From: Paraspadella gotoi
Taxonomy: Eukaryota > Animalia > Chaetognatha
NCBI GenBank assembly: GCA_051294375.1
Contig: CM119269.1
Span: 6,309,919 to 6,373,918 of the forward strand
DNA: 64,000 nucleotides
Direction: 5' to 3'
Every line of letters starts with the position of its first letter. Positions within the stretch are counted from its first letter, which is position 1. Positions 16,399 through 58,801 of this stretch are shown piece by piece. A program made the position numbers and the translations under genes. The notes below the pieces were generated by a model that ran no database searches, was not told where the DNA came from, and was given only the letters and a program-made list of their open reading frames with translations.

Positions 16399-17775
16399 AT
16401 CCTCCGGGAGAAATGGGGGGTTAGGTGGAAAGCGAGTTGGGATGGGTGGGTGTGTTTGGGTGTTAAGCCTGCGGAAACGATCTAGTCACCTCTATATTCA
16501 TTTTTTTTTAAAGTATTAATTAAAATTAAATAATAAAGGTTTATGAGCAAAAAGGAAATTATCTATCCGTTTTTTTTTTTATATCAACGAGATGATCCAG
16601 CAAAATATATACATATATCTACGTACGCGGAATCAGCTAATCTATATCGAATCATAAGAATGCCAATTACACGCATTTTCCTTTTTTTTTTCAAACGGAA
16701 TCGATTTTTGGTGTTGCCCTCATTTAGCTTGATTTCTCCTCCACAACAAATCACATCAATTTTTTCCCCTTCATCTCACCAAAAGCTTTTCTTAGGACTT
16801 TTAAACATTAAAATACGACAATTCTAAGTATTCCAATTTTTATTTATTTATTTCGTTTTTAACCAGTTACTATCATACTCAAACAACTGTGACATTGTTA
16901 ACCGTTGGAAATATTGCTTCGAAGAGCCGTGAAGAAAAAGCCGTTGACGTTGCTGCAACTACATTCTGTCCTTTTTTTCTTTTTTCAACCGTTTTAAAAA
17001 AAGCATATTTATGTATTTTTGCCATTTTGGGTATGCACTATTGTTTTATTGCCATATTCCTATTGCGTATCTACGTATATGTATACGTATCTTTATATAC
17101 GTATATATTGATTTATACATGGTATTGCTCGGTTTCGAAATACTCGAGGCTTGCGTAGTATTTGTAGTTTGTACGTCTTGGAATGGAAGATCTCATGCTT
17201 CACGATCGGAAAGTGATAATTGGCAAATTTACTTTTAGGAAGCGGAGCTTTTTTTATCGAGCGGCTATTAGGGTCATCATCTCTTTACAAATCTGTCAAG
17301 TTATGACGCGTCTTTTCTGGGATCATACCGAAATGTCAATGTTATTCTTGAATCGTTAGCACTGTCCAAATACGGGTGGCGGTTTAACATCTCACCACAA
17401 CATAGTTGCAGTAATCAATCAGCAAAACGATTTTTCTCATTTTGGCGGATTTGAAATCATTGGAGAAATAAGTCGTCTTATTTTTAGCGAAGGATGTTCT
17501 TTTTTTTTTTTAATTAGATTGATCGTCGATGAACAAAAAAAAAAGTTAATTATGAATCATTCATTTGTGATAGCTTCCTTGTTTTTAATTTACTTTATAT
17601 ATTGCCTTATTTGGTAAGGTCGTAATCGTGCTCGAACTTTTAAAAAATGTGGCCGGAATTTCATTCTCCTTGACGATCGAAGCGAAGGTCCCGAACTTCC
17701 TAAAGTTTTCAAAAGAAAAGAAGAAAAAATATAGAAACTAAAAACATTCCTTTCCCCTCGCATTTCCGTCGCACG

Positions 17776-18906
17776 ATGCCCTCCACTCCGGATTTTACAT
17801 TGAACGTCTTGGTGGGCGGCGTTCCGCTGCCGGAATACGTCGGCGCCGATGGGCGCCATTTTGTCGAGTCTCCGTTGACGACGCCGGTTTCTTACAAGGT
17901 CGAGACTTCAGAAATGACCGCTCATGGAGATCTGGAGACGCAACGGTGGCCGGTTACTCCTTATCAGGTGAGGGAGAATGGTTTTTTGAAGAAGCACCCT
18001 TTGCAACTACCGCTCATTGTAAACGCTCTTGCACATTTCTATCCCTCAAGGTGCGAATCCAGGCTCATCTCTCCGCCCCGCACACCTACTATCACATCTA
18101 CGTGGACGGGGTGCTCGCCAAGAAAACGTCGATCCGCCCGGGAGCCAGCGTCACCATCTTTGGGTTCGACGACCAACTCGCCGTCAAGGAGTTTCTCTTC
18201 TCCCTCCCGCGATTTCCTAAACACGAGCACGACAAGTTGGAGAAGACGCGAGTGTCCAAGGTCGGCGTCATCGAGGTCGTCGCCTTCAACGCCACCAAGG
18301 GTGAGGAAGAGAATGCCAAAGGGTTTTCGTAATCGAGGTTTTTAAATAACCTCAGTCTTTTTCGATTCACCAACAGTGAAGGAAAGGATGGAGCACCGCT
18401 CCAAGGCACTCAGCTTCGAACAAGCCTCCAAAAAAGACTGCTCCTCAGTGACGCAAGGCAACCACACGATGAGCACAACAAAAGTGGGAAAAGTAGTTCG
18501 GCAGAAGGCACTCTGCAGAAAAGTGGACAAATGGCGGAAGCTCGGAGTCAGGAGCACGGCAGAATTGCATTACAGGTTTATAACTTTATAAATCTTTTTT
18601 TTTTTTTTAACTCTTATCACCTTTTGGCCAATGAAATCAAAATTAATCTAAACTGGAATTCCTAGAATGGGTCACTCTCTCGAAGACATGGGATTCGTTC
18701 TTCAACCAATCAACGTTCCGCAACCCGCCCTCTCACAACCCACAAACGATAACTGTAAAGTGAAGCCAGGCACGCCCGCCCCAGCCTCCTCCGGCCCCGC
18801 GACCGAGACCGAACCCTCCACCTCTCAAGTCGTTAAGCAAGAACCCATTCCCTTCAACCCTCCAAACCCCATTGTTCCCGGGGAAGTGATCGTTTTGGAT
18901 GATTGA
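17776..18906 (+). CDS. Uncharacterised protein resembling the DUF7918-type family; exons about 17776-17967, 18051-18300, 18376-18574, 18666-18906
   Basis: Four phase-compatible exons. Motif order V.VGGVPLPEY…VES…IYVDG…FGF…EFLF…VGVIEV…LHYR…LEDMG recalls DUF7918 (from memory, not searched). Confidence 0.75.
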
Positions 18907-19248: not shown

Positions 19249-19717
19249 ATGGCGCCGAAATACGCGATGGCCATTGGGCGCGTCCGAGACAAGGGATTCC
19301 GCACGACGAAACACAAGGCTCCGGTCAAACCCTCCCGTAGAAAGGGAGTTCAGCACAAAGTAAGATTAAATTTTAAAATCCGTGACGTTATGTAAAAAAT
19401 ATTTGACTAAAAATCTAATTTTCGCAGCGCGTAAAATTCGTGAGGGAGCTCGTGCGCGAGTTGGCGGGATTCGCTCCTTACGAAAAGCGGTGCTTGGAGT
19501 TGTTGAAGGTGAGATTCGTTGATATCTGACGATCGACGGCTTCGATCTTCTGTTTTACTCCTTTTTTTTTTTTTTTTTTTTGCAGGTCTCCAAAGATAAA
19601 CGCTGCTTGAAGTTCGCCAAGAAGAGGCTCGGTGCCCACGTCAGAGGAAAGCGAAAGCGAGAGGAAATGCAATCGGTCTTGCAAGCGCAACGCAAAGCCG
19701 CAAGCGCCAAACAATAA
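19249..19717 (+). CDS. RPL36: 60S ribosomal protein L36, 3 exons
   Basis: KPSRRKG…[54 protein letters not shown]. Confidence 0.97.
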
Positions 19718-19936
19718 AGACAAACTCCATCGCATGTTTTTTCTTTTTCTTCCTCGATCATAATGCGCCAATTTTGGTTCTAGTTAACGAACGTTTCGTG
19801 AGAATTTTTATCTAAAAGTTGATTTGTAATTTCATTTTGTTTTTTCAGCCCAGAGTTAAAATTTAACGATACTTTGTGATAAGTGGAATGTGTTTACGCT
19901 AAGAATACACTCTCCCAAATTAATTATATAGAGACC

Positions 19937-21252
19937 ATGGCTCTTTCTAACGACGTCAGGTCCGACCCTTTCCACACTGGCGTGACAAAGATTTTATTGG
20001 AAGCCGTAATGAAACTGGCGGCTCTTACCGGTACTTCGGGTTTTTCTTGATTTATTTAAATCAATGAATTTTTTCTCTATGTATCTAATAGTAATATAAA
20101 TACAAAACGCATATGATATTTCAGACTCGCGCCTCTTCGTTCTGGTGGAGAATTTCGAAGGTGGGCGTCAGTTCGCAGGATCGCGGCACCTGACGCAGGC
20201 TTTCCGCGCTGGCGGCATCGGCCCACTGCCCACCGACGTGGAAGTGCAGATGCCGGTCGACGTGGCGCCCGTCAAACACTCCTCCATCGGCGCCCCCAAC
20301 GCCCACCATCACCACCACCACAGCAGCGGCGTCCGTCGCCCGGCGCCCTCGCGCGATCACCACCACTCCTCCGGCGTGAAGAGGCTCAAGATGAGCGACG
20401 GCTCGGAACACGTCCTTGAACAACAGGTGCCGCCGCCCGTCTCCGGATCTTTGCCCCTCGATACGCGGTATTCGACCGGCGCTCCTGCCGTTGTGACCTC
20501 GCCCTATGGCCAGTCTTACGTGAACAACAAGTCCGGAAGGTGAGTCTCTGCGATTTGATGAATACGATTCCATCTTTTAACTTCCTTCCTTCCCTCAAGC
20601 GATTGGAGTTCGGGAAACCTTCAAACTGTCCAGTTCGACGCCGTCGACGGATTCCACTCTCCCCATCATCCCCAACACCATCACCCCGATCACCATCGCG
20701 ACCACCATGGCCTCGTCGACGAAGGCAGCGACTCTTGCATCCCCGAGGAGCTGAAGAAACAGTGGCAGGAACACCGGGCGCTCAAGGAAAGGTCGCCGAA
20801 ACAGTTGGCCAGATTAGAGAGGGAAAGAAGGTGGGGGCAGCCTCGTTTTTTTTCCAAGTCCCACCGGCGCCGCTTTAACGCCGATCGTATGAAAGAATTT
20901 TTTTCCTTGTTTAAAGTTTTCAATTCTTTCCAGGAAGCGCGAGAACATGTCCGAGGCGGAGCGCGAGATGTTGCGCCGCAAACAGGCGATGCAGGCGCGA
21001 GAGCGGCGCCGAAACCAGTCGCGGGCTCTGGGCGAGGCGCGCCGCAACCAAGACGTTGAGTTCGAAATCGAGGAGCGGGCGCGCCTCGTCGGCGCTCGCT
21101 ACGACCCGCCGCTCGAGGGAGAGACTCTGCAGGAGCAGCGGAACCGCCGGGCCAACAACCGGCGCCGCGTCAAGTTCGCCGAGAACAAACTCGACGCAGT
21201 CGGACTCGGGAATTTCGAAGTCAAGCCCATCGACGTGCACGAATCCTTGTGA
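19937..21252 (+). CDS. Novel protein A: MADS-like N-terminal module, His/Pro-rich linker, basic RYDPP repeat; exons 19937-20030, 20125-20539, 20600-20830, 20934-21252
   Basis: Four phase-consistent GT-AG exons. N-terminus is homologous to the gene at 30185; C-terminus is homologous to the modules at 22800-25839. Confidence 0.85.
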
Positions 21253-22116
21253 TCGATTTTTTCCAAATCATTTGGCGCCAAAAAATAAAAATAATACAGT
21301 TGATTCGTACCGACATATTTTCGACAAAGAAGAATTGTTCCCATGACAACATAGCCGATGTCTTGGAGGGGAAAGCCCTGAGGATGAACTCGTTAACGGC
21401 GCCACTTCAAACATTATGTTGTTATTATTTGGGAAAGAAAAACATATATTATAAGTCGACAATAGGCGCGTGCTACATTATCGTATATGCTATGTTTTGA
21501 AAACTCTTTAAGACATTGTACGGTCGCGTATATTCTTTGGATTTTTTTTCTCGAAGATTTACATTTCATCAAGTATTAGTTTTACTTAGTCGGGCTGCAG
21601 AGTGTTTTACCTAGTCTATTTGTTTTAAAATAGACGAGTAAATCAAATCTGATTTTTATATTTACATCGTTGAAATTCTCAGAAGTTATTAGTTTTTTAG
21701 TTTGAAGCCAAGCAAAGGTAAACAGAATCATTCATACGGTTGTCAATTCAGACGACTTATCATTCGACGACATATTACCGATTGTGTTATTTTTGGTTAT
21801 TAAAACTTCCTTCACGCAATTCTTAGACAACAAAATTTACTTAATTCACGATTTTGTATTGTAAAGTACGTGTGCATGTTTACTTTGTAAATACCCCGAT
21901 CCTTCATCTGTAAATTAATTGCCATACTTTTTTTTGTCTCTCTTTTAACGACTTTAAAATTTGAGAATCGAAAAAAAGACTGTAGGCTATGAACAACAAT
22001 GTCGCTTTCTCCTCAACCCTTTTCACGTCCCATTTTCGATCCTGCCCTTCCCTCGTTTCGATCTCTCTCAATCTCTTTATCTCTTTTACTTGCAGCGATT
22101 TTAGTTCGCCGCCAAA

Positions 22117-24950
22117 ATGAGCGTCGGGAACATGAACGTCGCTTACCCGACGATCTGGACGAAGGTAAACACCAACTGGTCAGCGGTTAATCTGCAAACC
22201 GTACACTTTGAACCGGTTACCATGGAAGCGTACCAACAGGCGCAGCAGAGCACCCCGGGTGAGGCGAAAGGTGAAGATCTTCCAACATCTTTTCTTTTCT
22301 TCAATCGTTGAAATTTCGTTTTAAAACCAAAGGAAGGGTATCAATTTTTTTTTTCCCGTTTTCCCTTGTCGTCAAGGCAATGCCATTATCGCCAACGCTG
22401 CCGCCCTCTCGGGCGTTCAGGTCAACGGCCTTCCCATCAAGAAAGAATGGCCCCCTCAGCAAGTTTCCCAAGGCCAGCTGCCCCAGACTCACATCACCCC
22501 CATTCAAGTGACCGCTGGGCCGGGACAACAGTTACCCGGCCAGCCCCAGGTCATCCAACTCCAACCGCAACACCTGCAGCAGCTGCAGCACCAGCAGCAA
22601 CATCAGTCGCAGCAACAGCCTCAGCTCCTCCAACCCATCCAGCTCTCAGGCGAAGCTTCCAAGGGTCTCTCCATAGTGACGGCCGTGACGCCCGTGACGG
22701 CCGTGACCCCGGGACCCAATCATCCGCAACCCTCCCAAACGCCCACCAGCCACCACCAGTCCCACCCGACGCCCAGCACCACGCCCGCCATGTCCGCCGC
22801 CGATCGTTCTCCGAAATATCTCGCGCGTCTCGAACGCGAGCGGAAAAAGCGCGAGAACATGACGGAGGAAGAAAGGCTCCTTTTGCGACAGAGGCAGGCG
22901 CAGCAGGCGCGCGATCGCCGCCGCAACCAGGCCCACGCTCTCACCGAGGCGCGCCGGAGCCACGGGGGCGACATCGAGAACGAGGTCGAGAGGCGCGCGC
23001 GGCTCATCGGCGCCAGATACGACCCTCCAGTCGATGGGGAGTCAATTCACGAGCAGAGAAACCGGAGGAACAACAACAGGTTCTATAGAAATAGAGAGAC
23101 GAGAGATTGCGTCGTCACCTCTTTATTTGTACATACAAATAAGTATTTTGAGATATTGTTAATTTAGATACGTAAATAAATTTAAAACAGAGATTAAGAG
23201 TAAGAGAGAGTAAGAGAGTTATTAAATTGGTACAACAAATATAAGAATTATCCATTCATAAAATAAATACTATCAAGGAAAAAAGTATATCACATTTTTA
23301 ATAAAGGATATCTAATCGAAAACTTATTTGATTTAAAAAAAATTTGAATGTTTTCGAATTTAAATTAAATTTATTTTCAGTAGCTTCCTTCTTTTTTTTG
23401 TAGGTCAAATCGTTTAGAAGTTACAGGCAAAAAAATATTGTTACTTCAAATGAAAAATGGCGAAAAAAGTTTTTTATTATTTTTGATATTTAATTATTTG
23501 TTTTTATTTTGAATAAAGTAATTTTTTTTCAATTTGGCAATGCTAAAGGCCTTATATCTCATTTTGGTTCAAAAAAATGCTTTTATAGCTTTCAGAAAAG
23601 AGAGAAAAACGCGTAATATCATCGAGTCTTAAAAGAATTTCATTAAAGATGTGGAAAAACATTTCACTGTCAAACCTCAATTTACTGTATGAGAGCATAC
23701 CCAGATAAATGCAGGCTGTAATCAATACCGAAGAAGGGTATACCAAATATTAAGAATGTTTTACTCATGTTTTGTATATTTTTTATTAAATAAATGAATT
23801 ATGTGATATACTGTTTTCCTAGATAGTAAGCTATCTTGCCCCTGACAATGGAGTGGCTATGGTGGGCTAAGGCCTACATCTCTCCTACGAAATAGTATCT
23901 TAGCATAGTTAGCATAGTACCTGACTTCTCCATCAATGAAGTTATATAATGTTTCAATTGTGAGTCCCTAAAATTAAATGTAAAAAATAAAAAAGGTTTA
24001 GTCGATCCCTTACCTCGTGACGACGCAATCTCTCGTCCGCGTCAGGCGACGAGTCAAGTTCGCGGAAACCCGCGGTATGGACATGGAGTTCGAGATAGAG
24101 AAGCGATGCCGCTCTGTCGGCTCGCGATACGACCCTCCCGTCCCCAACGAAACCATACAGGAGAAGAAAAACAGGCGTCAGAACAACAGGAGACGCCTGA
24201 AATTCGCTGAAAAAAAATTGAGTCAAAATGGGGTTGGTATATTGAATTTAAATTTGTTATTCGGAAATTAAAAAAAAATAAATCAAAGGCTGGGTTTCGC
24301 GGCAGGGTAAACGAATGAATTTTTTTCTTAAAGATTGCTGACTTTTTCCAACGTATACTAGTAGAAAAAAATAATGTAGTCGATTAATTAGGAACTGGCT
24401 TCTGTGTGTTGAAAACAAAAAACACTAAATACATATGGAAATGGAATAATTTTATTTTTAACATAACGTGCCTTGAAAAAAAATATTTTTTTGGACTTCG
24501 AAGATGTGCAGCAATTTTTAATTTTCTGATTCATTGTCTATTTTGCCGTAAAATCAAAGAATGAGTCATAAATGTCTTTAAATACTTATGCCAATATTTT
24601 GTAACCCACGGTTTAAATTTTTTTTAGTTTTTAATTTTATTTTTGCATGAGAGTGATATTCCCTGCTCATGTTAACACCTTAAACCTATTATTATTTTAA
24701 ACATTTCTTTTTATAAAGTGATACTATATCAGCGTAATTGTGCCTTCTTTTTACAGCGAAAATCTTTGATGGTTAATGGTTATTGATTAACTTAAATCAA
24801 ACCCGATGTTAAAAGTTTGAAAGTATAAGTAATAATGCGATATCTTTTAAAATCCCGATTTTAATTTATTTTAAACTTGACCTTTAGATCTTGTTCCAAT
24901 TTCAGTTTTTGGAAGGCCCTTTGACGCTCGATGCGGAGAAAACAGACTGA
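22117..24950 (+). CDS. Novel protein B: Gln-rich region plus two RYDPP repeats; exons 22117-22270, 22377-23080, 24045-24232, then last exon 24906-24950 or 25441-25839
   Basis: Phase-consistent splice sites. Shares the WS.xNLQTV.F..V motif and the RYDPP domain with gene A. The final exon is ambiguous. Confidence 0.75.
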
Positions 24951-25398
24951 CTTTGCACATCTTAAATATTTTATTTTATTTTAAATAATTTTAAAAATAA
25001 AAAATATTAGCAATTTTTTTTTTTAATTTACGAGGGGCCAGCGATGAATTTTTAGACTGAAGTACTAACTACTACATAGTAAATAATTTAAATTTTAGAT
25101 TCTTTTTAATATGAATTTAAAAATTAAAGAATAATGCGTAGTTTCTTATTTCTCTCGAAGACAAAGTTTTATTTAATAAGTTACATAACGTTACATACGT
25201 GACATTTTAATGGTTTTTGTCGCGGGTCCTTCGTAATATTAAACCTTTCCCTTTCTCATTTCAAATTTCCGACCAAATTATATTCCAAAACAAATTTGAA
25301 TCTGATATACCGTCCTAAAACTCCCTCTCCCCCTCCTTTCGACTCTTCTCTGCATTTCACCGCCGCCGCAACCACCGCAACCCGTGCTCGACCGCGAC

Positions 25399-25839
25399 AT
25401 GCACCACCACTCTCACCAAACGCCGCCGCCGCTTCCTCAGAATTGGTGCAACCGTCAGAATCAGCCCGCGAAAGACGCCTCCTCCAAGTACATGGCGCGT
25501 ATGGAGCGCGAGAGGAAGAAGCGCGAGAACATGACGGAGGAGGAGCGGGAGTCGTTGCGTCTCAGACAGGCGCAGCAGGCGCGCGACAGGCGCCGCGCGG
25601 CCTCCCGCGCCCTCAGTGATGCGCGCAAGAACCAAGATATCGAGCTGGAGATCGAGGCGCGCGCGAGGATCGTGGGAGCGCGTTACGATCCGCCCAACGA
25701 GGGCGAAACCCTGCTCGAGCAGAGGAACCGACGCAACAACAATAGGCGACGCGTAAAGTTCGCCGAAAACAAACTGGGATCCTCGGGACTGGCAGACTTC
25801 GAGATCAAGTCCGTCAGCGTCAGCGACGCCGTGGCGTAA
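25399..25839 (+). CDS. RYDPP-repeat module C: either a single-exon gene from ATG 25399 or an alternative last exon (25441-25839) of gene B
   Basis: KYMARMERERKKRENMTEEER…GARYDPPNEGETLLEQRNRRNNNRRRVKFAENKL is a close paralog of the gene A and B C-termini; phase-0 acceptor at 25440. Confidence 0.75.
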   Translation: MHHHSHQTPPPLPQNWCNRQNQPAKDASSKYMARMERERKKRENMTEEERESLRLRQAQQARDRRRAASRALSDARKNQDIELEIEARARIVGARYDPPNEGETLLEQRNRRNNNRRRVKFAENKLGSSGLADFEIKSVSVSDAVA

Positions 25840-25869
25840 AAAATAAAATTACTTCTTTTTTTTCGTTTG

Positions 25870-25874
<5 letters not shown>

Positions 25875-25937
<63 letters not shown>

Positions 25938-25955
25938 CTCTCTCTCTCTCTCCTC
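25875..25955. repeat. (CT)n microsatellite
   Basis: About 80 bp of CT dinucleotide repeat with minor interruptions. Confidence 0.95.
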
Positions 25956-27485
25956 ATTCGCGAAGTATAAGCATATGTAACGCGCGAGAGTGATTTACTT
26001 TATATACGTTGGATCGAAGCGGCGTCGATTATTTTATCTCTTTCGCTCGGAGAAACGTCGAAGTGGCTGATGCCGACGCGTTTGCGCTCGACCTTTTCGC
26101 TTCCCAGATTGAAACCAGTTTTAATGATAAAAAATAATCGAAATACAAAACTAAAGACATTTCCCTTCGCCCCCCATTTTCATCTTTGGAGAGAGAGAGG
26201 CATATATCGAGGAAGAAGCACGAAAATGCCGATTTTTTTTCCCCTTTTTTTAGATTTTTCTAAAAAAATTGTTCATAAATGGATTTGACGATTTTCATTG
26301 CATGCATTGATTTCTGCTCGCAGGATTGATGTTATTTTCGACATGTACCGTTTCCCTTTCCCTCCAAGCCCCTTATTTTTATTTCGGTGCGCGGATATTT
26401 CACCCTCTCCCCTCCTCGCCCCCGTTTCCAAACGAATCTCCGGCGTGTATTTTCTGCTGCATATTTTATTTTCACTTGGGTCTTTTCGAGTTCCAGTCCG
26501 AATCGGGAGTGAAAGATCTCGTGATTTAAACAAACTTATCAGTAATCACGACTCTTTTTCTCCCGCTCTTTACCCCTCGAGGCCATTCGCTCCCTCCCAG
26601 TTTTCGCCCCCAATCTCATTCCAATCCTACCTCCAGTTTAAGCGTTGGCTTCCCAACTCCCCCGTCCCCTTCCCCTACCCCGGCGATGACGGACGATGGA
26701 CTCGAAATGGTTTGTTTTCTACTTTGATGAAAGGATTTCAAAATGTTACAAGTCTGGAGATACATTGCGACTTGATTGTCTATTAATCGCGGAATTAGGC
26801 TCCGTTTAGTTACGCCGATCCACCGGCTCGTTGGATTTTTTTTTATATTGCGGAGATTCCCCAATTTTGCGAGATATGATTTCAACTCGCGAATTTTTAT
26901 TGTATAATACAAAGTTCAAAATTTCGTGCTTTGTTTACACTATCATGGCCACTTGATTTTTTTTTTTTAGTTCTTATTAAGGATTTCAAAAATGAATTTT
27001 ATGAGGTTTGTACAAAGTACATCGAGTTTTGTACGTCAAGAGGCTCTTTATTTATAGTTTTTACTTTGCTATAGATTTCATAGATAAATTACCAGTTTGA
27101 TTTTTTTTTTGTATGTCGGTAATGAAGACTTTTTGCATAATAGGCACCTCCTGCAATAAGAGATTTTTTTTCTTTCTCAGCATAATTTTCTTTCTCATTG
27201 GTTTTCACGTCTTCATTACTTTCGAGTTAATTTTACTTATGGAGTGGCATTGCATTTAAAAAAAAAATCGTTAAAACACTTTCTTCAAACGTATATATTT
27301 TGTTTAAACGTCAGAAAAGATATGATGGATCACAACACGAAAAAAAATAACAGTAATTTAAAAAAAAAACGAAAACACCCACACGTTGTACATATTTTAT
27401 GTACTTATCACCCTCTCTCTCTCATACTATTTGATTAGAAAGTCTCGTCCTCCATAATGATACAATTACTTCTTTCAATATAGAG

Positions 27486-29510
27486 ATGTCAGTGAAGTCC
27501 TTGACGTGCCTCGTTCGAGGCGGAAAGCGGTTCTATCGATCTTCGGCCGGAAAAACTTTTGTCTCGAACGCTCGTTGTTTCGGCCTCCCCTCGCGTTTAC
27601 CGGACTCGGCCACGCCCACCGCTCGAGGCTTCTCCACATCCTCCCGCCTCGAGGCGCAGTTTTATGATTCGGCGGCCGAAGCCGTCGCCGACATTTCCGA
27701 CGACTCCAGGCTTCTCGTCGGCGGTTTCGGACTCTGCGGAATTCCCGAGAACCTCATCGACGGCCTCTTGAAAAATGGCGTCAAGAATTTGACAGGTGAG
27801 ATGAACAAATTTGTGGAAACGACCGATGAAAAGCGATTCGTCTAAATCCCTCGACTCGACTCGACTCAGCGGTGAGCAACAACGCGGGCGTCGACGACTT
27901 TGGCCTCGGCCTTCTTCTCAAAACGCGGCAGGTGAAAAGAATGATCTCTTCATACGTGGGCGAGAATCGTGAGTTCGAGCGCCAATACCTCAGCGGCGAA
28001 CTCGAGGTCGAACTTACCCCGCAAGGCACGCTCGCAGAGAGGATACGCGCCGGCGGCGCCGGAATTCCAGCTTTCTTCACGCCGACCGGTGAGAGACCGG
28101 ATTTTGATTTTTGATTTAATTTCTAAATGTGTGCAAATTTTGCTATCTCTAATTTTGTTTGGTTATCTTAGGGGAAGTTTAGAATATTAAAAAATAATCA
28201 CTATACTAATAATTAAATAAATATAAATAAATAGATTGGTTTAAACCAATACAATAAAAATTCGCCCATTCAATAAATAAGCAACCTAGCTTATCGAACT
28301 TTACTTATATTTTGAATTTGTATTTAACAAGATATAACTAAGAACTGACTATCATCTCTGCTAGCTTACGGAACGCTCGTCCACGAGGGTGGAGCTCCAA
28401 TCAAATACTCTCCCGAGGGTTCTGTTCTCATTCCATCCACCCCGCGCGAAAGTCGCCAGTTCGCTGGGCGACATTACATCATGGAAGAAGCGATCACGGG
28501 CGACTTCGCCCTCGTCAAGGCCTGGAAGGCGGACAAAATGGGAAACCTCGTCTTTCGCAAGACGGCGAGAAACTTCAATGAGCCCATGTGCAAGGCGGGT
28601 CGGGTCACCATCGCCGAGGTCGAGGAAATCGTCGAGACTGGCGAACTAGACCCTGAGTCCATTCACGTCCCATCCGTCTACGTCCAGCGGGTGGTACATT
28701 CGCACCAGCTGCAGAAGCGGGTCGAGCGCCTGACTCTGAGTCAGGAATCAAACACTAACGCCTCGAACAACGCAGTTTCGCCGGCTGAGGCCATGCGGGA
28801 AAAAATCGTACGCCGGGCCGCGCGAGAGTTCCGCGACGGCATGTACGTCAACCTGGGCATTGGTATGCCAATGCTCGCGTCGAACTTTCTTGAGGACGGG
28901 ATCACTGTGCACTTGCAGAGCGAGAACGGAGTACTGGGTCTTGGACCTTATCCCGCAGAGGCTGAGGTTGACCCCGATCTGATCAACGCTGGGAAGCAGA
29001 CTGTCACCGTCGTCCCCGGCGCTTCTTATTTTGGAAGCGACGAGTCCTTCGCCATGATCCGTGGCGGCCACATCGACATCACCATCCTCGGCGCCATGCA
29101 GGTCTCGCAAAGCGGAGACCTTGCCAACTGGATGATCCCCGGCAAGATGGTCAAGGGCATGGGCGGCGCCATGGACCTTGTCGGCAGTGGGGGGAGCAAA
29201 GGTTAGAGGATTTTGTTTTTTTAAACTTAGTTATCACAATAATTTAATGTTATTGTTTTTACTTGTTCCAGTTATCGTGACGATGGAGCACACCGCCAAG
29301 GGAAAGCCTAAGATCTTGCCGGAATGCACGCTCCCCCTGACGGGCAAAAACTGCGTCGACATGATCATCACGGAGTTAGGAGTTTTCGAGTTCGCGGACG
29401 GAAAAATAATGTTAACGGAGATTGCGGATGGCGTCACCGTTGACGAGGTCGTCAAAGCCACCGCGTGTTCCTTCAAAGTTGCCGACGAACTGCGACCCAT
29501 GCTTCAATGA
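27486..29510 (+). CDS. OXCT1: Succinyl-CoA:3-ketoacid CoA transferase, mitochondrial
   Basis: Mitochondrial presequence, [37 protein letters not shown], catalytic SENG and [11 protein letters not shown]. Confidence 0.97.
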
Positions 29511-30184
29511 CCCCTTATTTAAACTAAATTGTCCCCTTTTTTCGTTCTCAAGCGCTTCGACGGGTTACATTATCTTGTCAAATTATACATCTCGTCTTTT
29601 GTGATACTATCAAATTTTTTTATCACCACGCTGAAAAATTACTTAAAGAGTTTGTGAGCAAAGCCGGAACTTCTCACAGGTTTTTAATAATGTGAAGTTT
29701 TTTATTTTAATTTTGGATCTTTTGAGTTTACTTAGCTACCGAGATTCCCTCACAAATTAGCATGGAAAATAAAAATCGTATGACAGACAAAATAAACTTA
29801 CACGACTCAGTCGAAACTAAAGTGATTTCAAGCTCAAACATCTACTTTCCTACCGACACAAAAGTTTACTCAATCCATCCATCCGATCACGAGTAATTGG
29901 AGTTCAATGCTTAAGGTGGATGGACGGATATCATTTTTTTGCATATTTTTTTGCCCCCTAACAATTCGACGTTCTGAAATGATTTAGGTGACTGACCGAC
30001 ATAACTATAAGAGGTAACCGACACTGACAAAGTGACTTAAGATCCAGAATTCGCAACAAGAAGATTCGATTAAAAATGTTAAAAAACAGAATAAATAAAT
30101 GGAAACTTCATTCCAGTCTGAAAGTCATTTTTTTATTAATTCGTTTGTTTTTCAGTCTGTAAAAAATATAAACCTCAAAAGGCA

Positions 30185-33100
30185 ATGTCGTCTTCACAGA
30201 GCCTTTTGGGTCTCGTGACTCAGTTACAGTCCATGGAAATGAATTTGACGTCGGTGCTCATGGAAGCCGCGCTTAAACTTGCCTCGTTAACAGGTGCGTT
30301 TACGTACATTTTAGTTTGATTTTTTGAGAAAATTGCAAATTTCGAAAATCCATCTTCATTTTCCAGACGCGAGCGTCTTTTTTCTCATCGAAACGCCAGA
30401 AGGTCGACGGTTTGCCGGAAGGCATCATCTCTGCGACGCGTATCTGCGTGGATGTCTCTGTCCTCTTCCCGATGACAAGGAACTTGAGGTCGACATTAAC
30501 GTGTCGTCGCTGAGGGAGAAGTCGCGGCCACCGATGCCAGATCCTGGTGAATGATCGATGATTTACGAATTTAAGTCATTACTGATAACAGGGTCTTATG
30601 TTTCATCATACTATGGCAACGGGGAGACATGTGTGATGCCCGGGGTGTGAGGCAACTCCCGACAGCTGGTTGTCCAGCTTTTCTCTATCTTTTTTTCTCT
30701 TTCTCTCTCCCATACACGCAGTTTGTTTGTTTTTATTAACAATGAATGACCAATGACCATCGCGTCAATGAATGACGATCATCGCATCAATGAATGACTA
30801 TCATCGCGTCAATGAATGATTATCATCGCATCAATGAATGATTATCATCGCATCAATGAATGATTATCATCGCATCAATGAATGATTATCATCGCATCAA
30901 TGAATGATTATCATCGCATCAATGAATGATTATCATCGCATCAATGAATGACTATCATCACATCCATCATTTGGTTATCATCGCATCAATATTTGGTTAT
31001 CATCGCATCAATAATCAATTAATATTACATCAATCAATCAATTACTATTACATCAATCATTCGTTATCGCAACAATCATTCGTTTTTTTTTTCTGGAATT
31101 TTTCATTAATTTTCTTTGATAGTCTGCCGAGATCACTATACTTTCAAGATTTTTTTTCAATGTATGCAATACTTCATTCAGCGAACGATCGCGCCCTCGC
31201 TTCCTTGCCCAACGTGTCTTCCCTTCCTCCGTCTATCCGCCAGTCGCCCTCCGGCCGGAAACGTCCCTCCCCTTCGGCCGCCTCTTCCTCCTCGCCTATC
31301 AAACAGTTAAAGACGAACTCTTCCCGCGCCGGAAGCGTCGCCTGCAGCTTCTTCAACGCCGCCTCTCCCGTCCTAAAACGAGAGGCGGTGGACGTCAAGT
31401 CGGAGGCTTACGAGATTGACGACGAGGACAGCGACATCGAAGAGATTTTTGCAGTGGAGAGCGAAGAGGCGGTCGGCGGCGTCGGTGCCTTCGATTTTGA
31501 AGGAGCAGGCAGAGGCGCCATTGCTCCCAACGGCCTGGCGGTGGAATTAGCCGGCGCTTCCGGGATGGAAAGCGTTCTCAACCAATCGGAACTCGAATCG
31601 GTGGGTATCAAAACGGGCAGGTCGGGTTATGGGTGGGGCGGAAGAGGAGGCTTGCGATGGTTGGACCGATGATTTTTTTTCCATGGTTTCTTTTTCTTCG
31701 TACTGGCGGCGGTCATTCAAAGCAAGTTTGCCCAGTCTCGACCCCCGATCGGTGCGATGAGGCTTTTTTTGGTGGCTGACAAGATCCTTTCCTCCTTTCT
31801 CGCTCTTTTTCTTTTGTTATGTGTCTTCTCTATCTTACTCTTAACTGGCTCAACTTATTCGTCCTTTTCTTTCTTCTGCTCTCCCCTCCCCTTTCAAACC
31901 ACAGGAAATAATGTCTTGGGTCGAGACTTGGGTCCAGAGCAACGTGAAAGCGGTAGCGGTTCGGTCCATTGCCGACCCAGCCGCGCTGAGCGGTGAGAGA
32001 GGCGGCGAGCGCCGCCTCCTCAGTTCCCTCTGCTACGACTTTGGCAAAGATTTCGCCGTCAAGTTTCGCGGCGGAGGCAACCGCCGCTTCGCCTTTCGCC
32101 TTTTCTGGGCACAATTTCCTAACTTGCACGTCCACCTGGGAAAAGATTTCGACTACGGCGGCCGACCGAGGACGTTGATGGTCTGGTGCTCCGCCATGGT
32201 GTCCACGGCTGTGTCGAGGACGAACCATCGGGCGGCCGTTTTGAGCCGTGATCGCGTTCGTTTAGAAATCGGTTGAGAGAGGAGCGAGCGAAAGAGAGAG
32301 GGAGTTTGGAATACTTGATGAATGGAGTGTTGCTTTCTTCACCAGGTTTAGATTGATTTTTAAAAAGCAGAAAAAACCCTTCGTTAGCGGGAAAAAAAAG
32401 TGTATTCCTCTCCGTTTTTTCCAGGCGATGGTTAAATGGGTCCGGGAGGACTTTGTCAAGAGCAACCGAAAGTTCTCCCCTCTTTCTCAGATCAGTGACC
32501 CCGCTTGTCTGTACGATAAGAACACGATCGAGCGGAAGTTGATGAGCTCCCTGTGTTACGAGTTCGGGAAGGAGTTTGTCGCGCGCTTCTCCGCGCTTCA
32601 ACTCTCCCGCCGGACGGCTTTCGAAACGTTCTGGGCTTGTTTCGAAAACCTTCATCCCTACGACGACTTCATCTGCGAATTTAAGGAGGGTCAGAGAAAC
32701 TTGAAGAGCATGTGCAACGCCGTCTTTTCCACGGCCGTCTCGTACACCAAAAGAAAAGTGGTCGCGTCTTGAATCTCTTTCAGTTCGCGCCCCTGCCGCT
32801 CCCCACGTTGACTGCAGTTCGGTGTATTTTATTTGGGAATCAGCATTAATTATCTGTACTTGATCTTTCATTGAATTTTTCTTAAATTTTAAACGTTTTA
32901 CTAGATGAAAATCCAATTTAAATTTTTTTTTTCTCCGTTTCTATTTGCAGGCCATGGAATCATGGTTTTGGAATGTCTTCTTACAAAATAATCTAAAGAT
33001 CGAAGCGGTTAAATCTATTCAAGACGCGAATTGTCTGACGGAAAAAAGTACTAATGAAAGGAAACTCTTGAGCTCGCTCTGTTACGATTTGGGAAAAGAA

Positions 33101-34247
33101 TACGTAGAAAAATTCATGCATCCGGCCGTTTCTCATAAAATATTGTTCGATCTTATGTGGGGTTATCTCAGCAACTTGCACCAATTTCAACTTCACATCG
33201 TAGCTCATAAAAGTAGAAGAGTCAAATTGAAAACTCTGTGTTTAGATTTGTTTTCCTCGTCGATTTCTTACCGACGAAGCGTTTCAGTCGGAAAAAACCA
33301 TTAAAAATAGCAAGATGCTAAATTGAATTTCCATTATTTGGAATGTGTCATAATTTTTTCTCTCGAATAAAAATTTACTATAGAAACTTTAGAGGAATCT
33401 TCTTTTCCTTTGCTTTTCAGAACTTGTGGAAATTTGACGACTTTGTCCGTAACAACATAAAGTATGAGGCTTTAAAACAAATTCGAGATGAATCGATCGT
33501 TAATAAGGACTCTGCCTCCTGGAAAATATTCAATAGCGTGCTGTACGATTTCGCCAAGTCCGTTTCTGTTCATTGTAGAGACATGGAAAAGCGCCAAGTC
33601 GGCGCTTTTTTGAACATCTGTTTCCGCCAGTTTTGGGAAAATACACCCAACTTAAAGGACTTGCACGACGCTGGACTGGGGGCTAATTTAGGAAACGCTT
33701 ATCTCAAATTAAAAGCTTTTGCTCGTAATCGCGCTCGCAGCCTTTTGAGTAGTATGTTGAAAAAGTTTACGCAGCCTTAAGCTGAATATTGTTTTTTTAC
33801 GAAGTTTGTTTATTATTAAAAAAAATGTTTCATCGATTTTTAAAATGAAGTACTATTTAGCCTAAGTTAAGATTCAACCTCGTTTTCTAGGTGGCTTGGA
33901 TACATACGGAGTTTATCACTCAAAGCCCCAAAGTCCAATCCATTTTACAAATAAGCGACACGAGTGATTTAAAGTTCCGCGGAACAGTTACGAGAAAAGT
34001 ATTGGATTCATCTCTGTACGATCTGGGAAGATTAGTAGCGCTCAAATGTCCTTTCGATGACCCTAAGGGGGCGGCGGCGAAATCTTACCTGAATTTAGTC
34101 TACAATCGATGGTTCAATTCCTTTCCTAATTTCGATCTATTCAAAAATGACATGATTAATTATTCCGACGCTCGTCAACTTTCGGTGACGGCCTACATGA
34201 AGCAATACATTTACAAAGTATTGCTGTCTGTCAAAAAGCGTCAATAA
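30185..34247 (+). CDS. Novel gene with constant exons 30185-30293, 30367-30546, 31182-31600 and five alternative paralogous terminal exons (31905-32276, 32425-32772, 32951-33304, 33421-33780, 33891-34247)
   Basis: One phase-0 donor at 31600/31601. Each terminal exon has a pyrimidine tract plus AG, is phase 0, ends in its own stop and encodes a homologous domain of about 115-120 aa (I.D…RKL.SS..YD.GK…FW..F.NL). Confidence 0.85.
30680..31157. mobile_element. Dispersed minisatellite-bearing element, copy 1, with tandem 22-bp AATGAATGATTATCATCGCATC units at about 30741-30966
   Basis: Both ends (CT-rich…CATACACGCA and TCGTTATCGCA…GAGATCACTA.ACTTT.AAGATTTT) are shared with the copy at 40860-41512. 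Confidence 0.7.
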
Positions 34248-34606
34248 AAGTTTTCGAGATTTTTTTTCGTTTGTCCTGTCGCATATCTACTATATTTTTA
34301 TGTACTTTTGTTGAAAATTTAATCGTCAATAAACGAATAAATTATTGAATCCATCCCAGTTTTGTTTTCAAATATTCATCGCCTCGTTGATTTTGATCGA
34401 ATGGCTCCTGTTTTTACATTCTTCGTCTAGTTCTTAAGTTTTCTTTTCCCTGAAACGGAATCGACGAATAGAATCGACTCGGGCGAGTAACTACTTACGA
34501 GGGACTCCATTGTTTTTCTCACACGAACGGGTCCCGCGGCGTCGCCTCCTAGACTCGTTCTCTCTCATCCACGATTGCCGGCACCTCGTTCCGCCCTCTG
34601 GTGACG

Positions 34607-35265
34607 ATGTCCGTGGCGACGGCCCGCGTGCCTTCCAAGAAGCAGACGCTGGACGAGGCTTATTCACCGCCCGCCAACTTTCTGGAGATCGACGTGGCTG
34701 ACCCGGCGACTCACGGCTTCGCCAAGACCCGTTACACGGACTACGAGATCCGGATGAAAACGAATCTGCCCGTGTTCAAGATGAAGGTGAGACCGTATTC
34801 TTCAGTTTTAGCTACTTTCTTTTGTTTAATGTCAGCTGACCAAAGGTTGATCATGTTAAAATAGTGTAATCTTTCAATTTTCAGGAATCTTCGGTCAGAC
34901 GCCGCTACTCCGACTTCGAATGGCTCCGAGAAGAGTTGGAGCGAAATTCCAAGATCGTCGTTCCCCCTTTGCCTGGAAAGGCGCTCAAGAGACAACTCCC
35001 CTTCCGCCAGGTGGACGTCGTTGAATTGACAGTAAATTTAGATTAACATTGAGATCGAGCTTTTCTAATGGAATCCTAATTCTTCCTCAAGGACGACGGA
35101 ATCTTCGAGGACGAGTTCATCGAGGAGCGTCGCAAGGGCCTAGAGTCCTTTATCAACAAAGTCGCCGGTCATCCTTTGGCACAAAACGAGAGGTGCCTCC
35201 ACATGTTCCTTCAGGAGCCCACCATCGACAAGAACTACGTTCCCGGAAAAATCAGGAACACCTGA
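34607..35265 (+). CDS. SNX3: Sorting nexin 3/12 (PX-only)
   Basis: AYSPPANFLEIDV, RYTDYEIRMKTNLPVF, VRRRYSDFEWLR, PPLPGKA, FIEERRKGLESFINKVAGHPLAQNERCLHMFLQ. Confidence 0.96.
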
Positions 35266-36166
35266 TCGTCCGGATTCGTGGACGGAGATGCAAGAACTGT
35301 CGCGCACGATGCGACGAAAAAAAAAGGGGGGGGCTGAACAGTTTATTTAGTTTATTCGTAGTCGCGATAGACATGGGACAGAGTCTTTGAATGTGTTTTG
35401 GTATGAGAAAAAAAAATTGCTACCGGTGATTTGTCAGTATTTCCCGATCGGATAATATTTAACGGTTTGAACAAAATAAATCTTATCTCAACAACTAGTC
35501 TTACAAAGTTGCCTCAACGTAGCTAACGCAACTCCAAACCCCTAATGCATAATTTTCGGGCCACATCTCGAAGGTCGACACATTCTTTGCTTCTTTTTTT
35601 CTTTTTTTTGTCGTATTCTCTTCCCACCTTCGTTATTAACTTGAAGAAGCAATCAGCATATATACAACTGTCCGAGCCGCCTTCTTTGCTCTTTGTTTCT
35701 GGTTTTATTGTAAGGAAAGAGGTTCTTATTTATTTTTTAGAGTTTAATCAAGATTAGATTATTTTTGTGCAGTAAAAAAATGCTTGAATTTATGAAAAAT
35801 TAAAATTTTAAAAACTTGTCACTCTAATAAATAAAAAATCTTATGAACAATCTGTGATCAAAATTTCCTCCCCGGGGTACCTCTTCCCTTAAGCACTTTT
35901 GTTTTTACAATTTGACTCGCAAAATCTCAAATTTCTACTCCCTTCCCTCTAACGCCCAAACAAAGTCGTTAATTACATTCTATCATGTACTGTAAACTGT
36001 ATGGAATAATGATCTGTATGCTATAATTATCACTTAGAATTTTACCGTACATTTTCTTTATGCCTAGGTTTTATACACTTAACTCGATCCGTGCCTTGTG
36101 TAGTAAAGATTAAACGAAAAATGAGATTTCGTTGACCCTTCTTTGGTTTTAACGTCAAAAAAAAAG

Positions 36167-56300: not shown

Positions 56301-58801
56301 ATGAATTGTAAAGCGGGACGTCGAAGATTCGTTCAGTCTAGTCAGCAGGTCGGTCATCTAATCTTTAGCTCCGTACAAAACTTATTTTTTAGGGAATAGT
56401 ATATGCAAATTGGAAGATATTTTTACCGAATTATTCAATATTTATGCATACTATGGTCGCGACCTTCCGTCTCAGTTCTCGCTTTTCACTTGGCCGAGCG
56501 ACGTGCGACTCAACGATGTTCAATGGAAAAACCGTCCAGGAAACTGTGTCACGTCCGGCGATGTCCGTTTGAAAGATGACGACGGTCCCGGAACTCGGGT
56601 CGACAGTCTCGATGTCCCATTTGAAAGAAAAGTAGGGAACAGCGCTCCCGTCGATAGCCCATTTAAAAACCTGGCGAAGTACCGAGTCCATAACGTTCGT
56701 TCGACGCACAAACCTGTAAAGCCAATTCGAGAAGTTGTCGTGTTGAAGGTTCCCGTCATCCGAAAGAATGCAGACATTTCTAGGTTTGCGCTAACATTGA
56801 GCATTATATATATGCATGTTCCATAGATATTATTTATATGTAGTCGCATTTAGCTGATTATTTTGAACAGTAAAAAATTAATGGACGTTTTACCGCCACC
56901 TGGCGTCTCAAAGAATGATTCAGTTTCCCGCCAAAGGCAGTTTTATTGGCAAATGATCCCCGCATCAGAACAGTCAGGTTTTATATACATATCTTGATTC
57001 TTTTCTATCGCTATTTTGGTTGGGTAGTGCGGGGTAATTCGGAACACTTTTGGAAGTAATAACTTTTTTGTTTTTAGTCAATTTTTAAAAAAAAATTTCT
57101 GGTCATATATTTGAGAAAGTGTCCCCGCTACAGGTTGATGCAGTCGTTTTTTATCTTGAACATTGAAGTGTTCTGGGGCAATTCGGAACACATAATATAT
57201 TATGTATAATTTTTTATAATATTTCAGAAAATAATAACTAAAACACTATTATTTAGAGCATAAAGCCTTTTAATAATGTTATATGTTTAAAAAATTTTAA
57301 ATCTCAGATTCTTATGTGGATAAAAAGATATTTAATATGAAATTGGTACAACCAATATAAAAATTATCCATTCATTTAATAAATAAATTTTGGTACAACC
57401 ATATAAAAATTATCCATTCATTTAATAAATAAATTTTGGTACAACCAATATAAAAATTATCCATTCATTTAATAAATAAATTTTATTCTCACTTATAGAT
57501 AATATAGATATGTAGTCGGGCATTTCCTTAGTTCACCCCGCCTATAAGCATGACACCTTCAGTTGTGACCCGGTGGCTCATTGAGTAAAGACATCAGCTC
57601 TTGGTACCGGGTTCAAACCTAACCTGGTAAACCGCCTTGAGGGCCTGGAAAACCCTCAAGCCTGCTTCCAAGCCCAGGACCCATTCTATGGCTGCTGAGG
57701 GGGCATAGAAGTTACGGATAGTAATCTTCAGCCCACTAAGCGCCTTATCCACAGATACAAATTTGTATACATTTTTTTAATTTTTAGTATTTTTGACAAA
57801 TTTTCTTCAATTCCTGTATTTCGTTCCCATCTTTCTTTTCAATTCATATTGGTTTTTGGCCATTTTTTATTTCCAAGGTTATTTTTTCTTATATTTTTAT
57901 ATCATTTTTAAAATATTATTTCCTATTCCAAATATTTTTATTCACATTATTTTTATATTAATTTCATCTTAATTTTGTCTCAAAATTTAACGCCTAAATA
58001 AGGTTAAAAAATTAGTTTATTCTAAACTTTTGTATCCTTTTATTGTTAAAAATAGATTAAATATTAATTAAAAATAAAATTAATAGTATAACAATTTTTT
58101 CCGCATAATTATTTAACTAATTGTTACTATTATTGAGTAAATTATTACTAACGCGTTATAAAAAGTATGAGGTAACACAGAATAATTACTTTACAGAATA
58201 CAGGTGTTCCGTTTATCCGAAATTTAATTGTCGCTCTATATTATTTTAAAAAAATAATTCAGTTAGTTTTTGGAAATAATCTATACAATAACTAAAAATC
58301 TCGTCAATCAGATATCAATATTTAAGTCATATTACGTCATAATATGAGGCTTGTAAACTGTAAAGTACTACTCAAAGACGAAATTTGACTAGCAACTTTG
58401 AAATTTCTGCTAAAGCTGCTGCAGTAGCAGCCGAATGCTGTAACTTTAAAGTTTAATAATGGAAAGTCAAGTTGGTTAAATATTTAAAGCACCAAAAAAA
58501 ATTATGAAATATCTGTACACAATTGCTTTATATGTCAGGGTTCCGAATTACCCCGCACTCCCCTATGTATTTGTTAAAGCGTTTGAACCTTGGTCGTCCT
58601 TTATATTTTTCAGCGTCCAGTTGCGATTACCTTGAGTTCGACGGCCACGTGGCATATCTTCGTGACCACGCCCACCGTTTGTCCGCTCGCAAAGCGGAAT
58701 TCACTCGCCCTGGTCCAGCATTGTTCGTCTTGGACTTCGAAGACGCGCCCGATGATAAGACTCATTATCGCAAACTCGACTTGGGTCACGGTTATTTGTG
58801 A
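56301..58801 (+). CDS. Orphan protein of about 240 aa; exons 56301-56340, 56393-56783, 56871-56977, 58614-58801
   Basis: Four phase-compatible GT-AG exons with no in-frame stops; no family recognised. Confidence 0.6.
57340..57484. repeat. Tandem repeat, 3 copies of about 46 bp
   Basis: Unit TTGGTACAACCAATATAAAAATTATCCATTCATTTAATAAATAAATT; one similar unit occurs at about 23225-23269. Confidence 0.9.
57570..57760 (+). mobile_element. Second tRNA-derived SINE-like insertion nested in the TIR element
   Basis: A-box-like GGTGGCTCATTGAG (57572) and B box GGTTCAAACC (57610) in a GC-rich island. Confidence 0.5.

Follow-up and report, generated by a model that had tools for sequence, protein, structure and literature searches.

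How does one small N-terminal module come to stand in front of unrelated C-terminal parts, and what would it do there? The question is raised by a 64,000-nucleotide (nt) stretch of the chaetognath Paraspadella gotoi (GenBank assembly GCA_051294375.1, contig CM119269.1, positions 6,309,919 to 6,373,918 of the forward strand; the whole stretch is called the window below), which carries two genes, termed here gene A and gene B, that open alike and end differently. Our reading, which we regard as probable, is that the constant module is a pairing unit with the MADS fold, that the tails bind DNA, and that gene B draws its tail from a choice of five last exons. The first-pass annotation of this DNA stopped at position 30546; the main feature is the set of five last exons beyond that point, in the remainder of gene B (31182-34247).

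A common module and five last exons

Gene A consists of four exons, and gene B begins with two exons that match the first two of gene A. Values given as iE are independent E values of the module profile.

19937..20030, + strand: gene A exon 1 (94 nt), with ATG and the long helix of the likely MADS-fold module in a short N-terminal form; ends in phase 1; iE 5e-4
20031..20124, + strand: gene A intron 1 (94 nt), phase 1, GT..AG, within a conserved Asp codon
20125..20539, + strand: gene A exon 2, with the module's beta hairpin and second helix, followed by a His/Ser-rich linker and a short basic cluster; iE 7e-14
20600..20830, + strand: gene A exon 3, with a His-rich linker leading into the first part of the basic tail; junctions colinear with those of relative P0002
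20934..21252, + strand: gene A last exon, with the Arg-rich basic A-type tail; stop at 21250-21252
30185..30293, + strand: gene B exon 1 (109 nt), with the module's amphipathic helix, full-length and nonbasic; phase-1 end; iE 4e-14
30294..30366, + strand: gene B intron 1 (73 nt), phase 1, GT..AG, splitting the Asp codon that intron 1 of gene A also splits
30367..30546, + strand: gene B exon 2, completing the module with its beta hairpin, second helix and tail strands; iE 2e-21

The common N-terminal module that the first-pass annotation had reported is borne out: once spliced, the N-termini of A and B agree at 30 of 70 positions (43%; BLASTP E 2e-19), with a local alignment score of 151 against 23.9 +/- 4.3 (maximum 53) in 2000 shuffles. 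The intron had been called identical, which holds for its position and phase (in both genes the phase-1 break after exon 1 falls in the same Asp codon) and fails for its sequence, given that the alignment score of the two introns, 28, was equalled or beaten in 271 of 1000 shuffles; we therefore rejected likeness in sequence and retain position and phase as the only common features. The C-terminal parts are indeed unrelated, as had been claimed: of the 2440 segments in a six-frame scan of the window, those matched by the A-type tail profile are distinct from those matched by the B-type profile. The module profile found no third copy among the same segments, the next match having an E value of 0.15. 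The predicted gene A protein is 352 amino acids (aa) long, and 249 of its 352 residues are identical in P0002, whose colinearity across all three junctions confirms the four-exon model.

As a way to size the family, it had been suggested that a profile be made from the two copies and its members counted. Such a two-sequence profile, seeded with the exon-2 halves of A and B and run against the 50% cluster representatives of 1.84 billion proteins, matched 117 representatives, 25 of them with E values of 1e-10 or better; a second profile, built from 96 members, recovers the module in 116 of the 117 and places its start within the first 30 residues in 115. One candidate member, P0080, was rejected as a repeat-rich false match. 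Judged by sequence, the animal genes that carry this module form a family without a name, with more than 100 relatives; no description of it was found in the literature searched, mostly papers open without subscription. Full-length relatives are taken to be transcript-derived because they cross the positions of the window introns. The helix preceding the Asp position is intact in 103 of the 117 representatives; anchoring failed for 8, the upstream sequence of 2 is too short, and the remaining 4 carry unrelated upstream sequence, in every case breaking exactly at the Asp, after the Ser or Pro that an in-frame read of a CAG acceptor would give. Those 4 are presumably unspliced fragments, and the intron in the Asp codon seems to be family-wide.

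Other searches added no members. Word-based protein searches returned no relative, whether the query was the part of gene B encoded by exon 2 (6 candidates) or the family alignment among proteins of 1137-3245 aa (6685 candidates), and a protein atlas held no usable match for the gene A exon piece; for P0008, a relative, it gave only scores of 0.85-0.86 to unnamed bacterial clusters, which were set aside. Metagenome scans produced 128 pattern matches for the module and 199 for the A tail, of which 0 loci were confirmed, and the exon array has therefore not been seen in a second genome.

Gene B continues past its module into one further common exon and then into the array:

31182..31600, + strand: gene B exon 3, last common exon, with Ser-rich linker, basic cluster and acidic stretch; phase-0 donor after 31600
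31905..32276, + strand: putative last exon B1, 123-aa predicted helical domain, own stop
32425..32772, + strand: putative last exon B2, 115 aa; best match the P0010 tail (38%, E 9e-25)
32951..33304, + strand: putative last exon B3, 117 aa; best match the P0011 tail (41%, E 2e-21)
33421..33780, + strand: putative last exon B4, 119 aa; best match the P0131/P0146 tail (56%, E 3e-40; branch support 97)
33891..34247, + strand: putative last exon B5, 118 aa; first Met at residue 88

B1 to B5 are paralogous open frames of 115-123 codons. Each of the five is opened by a pyrimidine-rich phase-0 acceptor lying 3-5 codons ahead of an invariant Trp, and each has its own stop; all gene B exons lie on one strand and in order, so that cis-splicing suffices. 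A further comparison comes from relatives. P0010 and P0131 are exactly identical over their first 234 residues and then continue into a B2-like and a B4-like tail, respectively, and their divergence at residue 234 corresponds to the position of the window junction (residue 236). Their head, as we call the constant N-terminal part, is among the closest to the 236-aa common part of gene B, with 40% identity over about 240 columns; a similar head in P0011 is followed by a B3-like tail. The tree of 70 tail domains is a quick version in which 23 of 59 inner branches are unresolved, and it was used only for the placement of B4 with P0131/P0146. There is, then, direct evidence in a relative that one head is combined with alternative tails, and strong indirect evidence for the same layout in gene B; going by its sequence, gene B probably varies its tail internally through alternative last exons, a level of variation that the first-pass annotation had missed.

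At 30758-31059, intron 2 of gene B contains a 22-nt tandem repeat (11.5 copies, 92% matches) followed by a 23-nt unit in 2.4 copies. Were this intron retained, a stop would follow after two codons (30547-30552), leaving a 98-residue protein of the module alone, which could serve as a tail-less competitor. Several short database matches likewise consist of the module only and may be fragments.

Fold of the module, its lost basic residues and its tails

The fold was modeled with AlphaFold2 on a 96-row alignment whose first row is P0008. The P0008 module model (mean predicted local distance difference test score, pLDDT, 84.7) has a helix at residues 2-35, strands at 41-45 and 50-54 and a helix at 56-63, followed by two further strands at 75-80 and 85-90. 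A helix, two antiparallel strands and a second helix constitute the order of elements in MADS plus SAM/MEF2 domains, according to excerpts of bioRxiv 10.1101/2023.01.10.523452, and the model shows this order. The suggested Foldseek search, made with the P0008 model, has a MADS protein (MEF2, SRF or SEP3) in every row listed from rank 1 to 40, with modest scores (probability 0.69-0.98; E 0.18-0.9). An independent aligner, VIA-align, placed 5 of 48,161 chains at Z 5 or more, with the next chain at 4.5 (rmsd, root-mean-square deviation):

SRF: Z 7.1, rmsd 3.1, 62 aligned residues
SEP3: Z 5.8, rmsd 2.7, 56 aligned residues
MEF2A: Z 5.5, rmsd 3.1, 61 aligned residues
MEF2D: Z 5.4, rmsd 3.1, 75 aligned residues
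NRF1 (residues 97-159): Z 5.1, rmsd 3.2, 59 aligned residues

Residues 7-68 of the model align with residues 150-212 of SRF, and identity between the module and solved MADS chains is 14-23%. In sequence searches, SRF-TF (PF00319) is the most frequent of 32 Pfam families, found in 7 of 96 members (E up to 0.5) and in the same register; its best match has E 0.006 and 16.4 bits against a curated cut-off of 26, all 7 fall below that cut-off, and the matches lie on the second half of the profile, mostly at positions 19-46 of 48. The module exons of the window have no Pfam SRF-TF match. Because the three methods (profile hidden Markov model [HMM], Foldseek and VIA-align) agree, the module is likely, with rather high confidence, to have the MADS fold, and on the strength of a predicted structure, two fold searches and weak same-register Pfam matches, the MADS-like fold first suggested for it holds up as a prediction.

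What the module has lost relative to SRF is the charge of its helix. Within the stretch of up to 26 residues before an invariant Glu, Lys or Arg is absent from 54 of the 96 rows and occurs once in another 24, and the mean net charge of the module is -3.6, versus +5.6 for the B tails. The first half of the long helix is kept in most members as a conserved Leu-rich stripe; gene A has a shortened N-terminus that lacks the stripe. The basic half of the DNA-reading helix has been replaced by a hydrophobic, acidic one. The first-pass annotation had described the basic segment as lacking: nonbasic it is, although for the most part it has been replaced within a full-length helix, with actual shortening in gene A. 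According to excerpts of PMC10810270, SRF touches DNA through this helix and an N-terminal loop, and since the equivalent helix has here largely lost its Lys and Arg residues, the module very likely does not bind DNA; with such a charge, it would not be expected to recognize CArG-type sites.

Tails were surveyed in the 70 representatives of 250 aa or more that contain the module, with a B-tail profile built partly from these same proteins. A B-type tail is present in 51 of the 70, and the other 19 include P0002, P0025, P0059, P0081, P0001, P0020 and several apparently cut-short proteins. P0002 carries the A-type basic tail; P0025 has CENP-B N-terminal and Tc5 helix-turn-helix domains above the Pfam cut-off (E 2e-26); and P0059 and P0081 have a BED-like finger below it. 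Reuse of the module on different C-terminal domains, as originally proposed, is thus seen in several tail types, with one type dominating. A basic cluster in the linker occurs in 65 of the 70 long members. In P0066 and P0076, the chain ends in two B-type tail domains.

The B tail is predicted to be a mostly helical domain (pLDDT 89.6), and B tails are basic, chiefly in the last helix or last 30 residues (mean charge there, +5.5). For BEN domains there was no Pfam match in B1-B5 or six relatives and no clear match in fold searches; no BEN, Myb/SANT or NRF1 chain stood among the fold-search matches listed for the B tail, a result that excludes none of these; and B1-B5 gave no zinc-finger Pfam match at E up to 1. 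The gene A tail is charged, with many Arg residues, and in one stretch it shows the Glu1, Thr2 and Arg9 of the STPR domain of FMBP-1, which excerpts of PMC4856987 describe as three or more strict 23-residue repeats with Glu1, Thr/Ser2 and Arg9. We rejected this assignment: laid out in 23-residue steps, the tail shows no strict run of repeats, and it has no Pfam or PDB match. Binding of DNA by the A or B tail is suggested by charge and by the company of recognized DNA-binding tails on the same head.

Pairing, DNA binding and rival explanations

Under the reading that we favor, two heads would come together the way SRF and NRF1 do, by way of paired antiparallel helices and a sheet of four strands. 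The disordered linker of about 140 residues, with its basic cluster resembling a nuclear localization signal, would direct the protein to the nucleus and let each subunit set its own tail on DNA, and paired half-sites would be recognized by dimers of like or unlike subunits, drawn from paralogues and isoforms, much as BTB permits for lola and mod(mdg4). The MADS fold in this scheme is predicted from models; pairing, nuclear location, DNA binding and heterodimers are what we infer. Two representatives among the 117, P0001 and P0020, contain two copies of the module per chain and are possibly single-chain pseudo-dimers, which would fit a fold that works in pairs. Each tandem module in these two proteins is followed by a similar short basic motif, and the C-terminus is Gly/Tyr-rich. 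A homodimer prediction for the P0008 module (residues 1-92, two copies) scored 0.01 against a mark of 0.32, in a run in which the alignment was unused and the fold of the chain uncertain, and we give it no weight on pairing either way.

Several observations weigh against this reading. With respect to the fold, no single MADS score is strong, whether the Foldseek E values or the Pfam bit score; the best Z, that for SRF, falls in the range (under 8) in which the tool warns of a possibly common arrangement; the 6 PDB sequence matches of the family profile include no MADS chain, all of them lying in the low-complexity linker or tail; and the modeled protein is the relative P0008, not one of the window proteins. 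With respect to the tails, the B tail has no Pfam match above cut-off, its best Foldseek E is 1.1, and its best Z of 6.5 comes from among unrelated helical proteins; the A tail is without Pfam or PDB match, as stated; the tail of just 1 of the 70 long members passes a DNA-binding cut-off; and the prevalence of a single tail type makes the combinatorial range narrower than first implied. With respect to the array, the splicing of B1-B5 in the window itself is a prediction, P0010/P0131 is the single isoform pair sharing a head with different tails among 146 proteins, neither AATAAA nor ATTAAA occurs in the gap behind B1 or B2, and B1, B2 and B3 each have an early Met, two or three codons after the acceptor.

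The rival that fares best, though we consider it unlikely, accepts a MADS-derived, paired head and makes the proteins co-factors, the A and B tails binding proteins or chromatin and the head perhaps sequestering SRF or MEF2. Id proteins sequester basic helix-loop-helix factors, and a head stripped of its charge could act on SRF and MEF2 in a comparable way. The loss of basic residues from the head agrees with this, as does the failure to find a DNA-binding family or fold for the two tails of the window; however, recognized DNA-binding types occur among the other tails on the same head, the B tails are basic where their last 30 residues lie, and a head so far from solved MADS chains in sequence makes mixed dimers with SRF or MEF2 less likely.

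Less probable again is an origin by convergence, in which the helix-hairpin-helix head is an independent small interaction domain. Every MADS score is individually below significance, and the head has two extra strands and its own invariant Phe/Arg/Gly set, both of which suit an independent domain; yet MADS comes out on top in all three methods, always in one register, and the five top chains of 48,161 in the VIA-align comparison are four MADS proteins and NRF1.

It is more improbable still that the B units are small separate genes or duplicated remnants and that gene B uses B1 only. The early Met of B1, B2 and B3 and the predicted status of splicing in the window speak for it, and the A-type copies behind gene A (see below) do resemble head-less genes or remnants. 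On the other side, no Met occurs before residue 55 in B4 or residue 88 in B5, the gaps are just 110-304 nt, all five frames have stayed open at 20-42% mutual identity, and a relative joins a single head to B2-like and B4-like tails.

It is very improbable that the family arose from NRF1/Erect wing through exchange of the tail and not from SRF or MEF2: NRF1 does reach Z 5, one of five chains to do so, and, in excerpts of PMC10810270, has the same plan of head, linker and tail, but SRF stands 2 Z units above it, the signal in sequence is that of SRF-TF, and an NRF1 family is absent from the 25 listed of the 32 Pfam families.

The favored reading, of a MADS-fold pairing head with tails that bind DNA, has precedents for its parts. 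For the head there is NRF1, which the first-pass annotation had overlooked: excerpts of PMC10810270 describe it as a MADS-like dimerization domain (16% identity to SRF), a flexible linker and a separate domain that binds DNA sequence-specifically; the dimerization domain there still contacts the DNA backbone, and the DNA-binding domain is single and fixed. The likeness to NRF1/Erect wing lies in the layout and in the model match reported above, whereas here the head is acidic, has over 100 divergent relatives and is joined to several unrelated tails, some apparently by alternative last exons. With SRF and MEF2, the best structural matches, the module shares its predicted order of elements. Animals have one to a few copies each of SRF and MEF2, in which the MADS domain is itself DNA-binding (bioRxiv 10.1101/2023.01.10.523452, excerpts); the module, in contrast, is below the Pfam cut-off, without the basic residues, and expanded.

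The lola, mod(mdg4) and broad loci, as presented in excerpts of PMC4528330 and PMC12692577, have a common BTB/POZ head, variable zinc-finger ends and many isoforms per locus. Gene B resembles them in joining a constant N-terminal interaction domain to an array of alternative C-terminal exons (acceptors at 5 of 5), and differs in that its head has the predicted MADS fold instead of BTB/POZ and its tails are an unnamed, apparently all-helical domain instead of zinc fingers. The module model is a 90-residue helix-hairpin-helix, not BTB/POZ, and no BTB family is among the 25 most frequent of the 32 Pfam families listed for 96 members. The module family is a member of neither the NRF1 nor the lola group, nor of the MADS-box group as defined by Pfam or by basic contacts. 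Both ingredients have precedents; their combination, a MADS-fold head with alternative tails, does not appear to have one.

A broader proposal, which we offer tentatively and with more doubt than conviction, is that a poorly sequenced animal lineage made the MADS fold a general-purpose pairing adaptor, in a large combinatorial transcription-factor system that independently reinvents the insect Tramtrack-type BTB system. Taken jointly, and with the same reserve, this would entail dozens of paralogues, several with tail arrays that include a new DNA-binding fold, and free heterodimers in which any two tails may be paired. On the favored reading itself, a hidden, expanded family that kept the MADS fold, dropped its DNA contacts and swapped its tails would show large-scale reuse of the fold as an adaptor; the single NRF1 precedent would be extended, and there would be a further independent origin of the many regulators per locus seen in lola and mod(mdg4). 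The B tail, a domain of 115 residues that has no name and folds well, comes in five natural versions, whose DNA preferences, if any, could be compared side by side.

Neighboring genes and further A-type copies

The window is animal DNA in which introns are short and genes lie close together. Among 20 open reading frames (ORFs) scanned, Pfam identified phosphomevalonate kinase, LRRFIP, histone deacetylase, CoA transferase, EMP70, CLPTM1, UPF3 and a FAM174-like protein. From 19250 to 35270, genes follow each other head to tail on the + strand: one at 19250-19717 that we take to be ribosomal-protein-like, gene A, the CoA transferase gene, gene B and, in the region up to 35270, one that is presumably PX-domain sorting-nexin-like. 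The spacing between some of them is only a few hundred bases, and operon-like transcription of this set is possible. Elsewhere, a spliced, conserved-looking ORF lies at 17704-18665, with no Pfam match at E 0.01 in two frames, and ORFs overlap on both strands at 56362-56850, in A+T-rich surroundings, with no Pfam match for the + frame.

Three further copies of the A-type tail lie downstream of gene A:

22117..23167, + strand: second A-type tail copy, without module; ATG at 22117, intron 22271-22376; 63% identity
24011..24229, + strand: third A-type tail copy, truncated; 55% identity
25399..25839, + strand: fourth A-type tail copy, own ATG; 70% identity; no [ACT]AG acceptor in 25280-25420

The second copy is preceded by a phase-2 acceptor at 22095 that is compatible with gene A exon 2, but a stop follows after 8 codons, and the copy may be either an alternative exon or a separate gene. 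A one-base miscall in the AAAA run before the ATG at 22117 would bring the acceptor and the ORF into one frame. Within 22095-22200, this unit twice repeats a short motif from the beginning of gene A exon 3, weakly right after the acceptor and more clearly about 20 codons past the ATG. The third copy is probably a remnant and the fourth likely a separate head-less gene; together, the three may be head-less duplicates.

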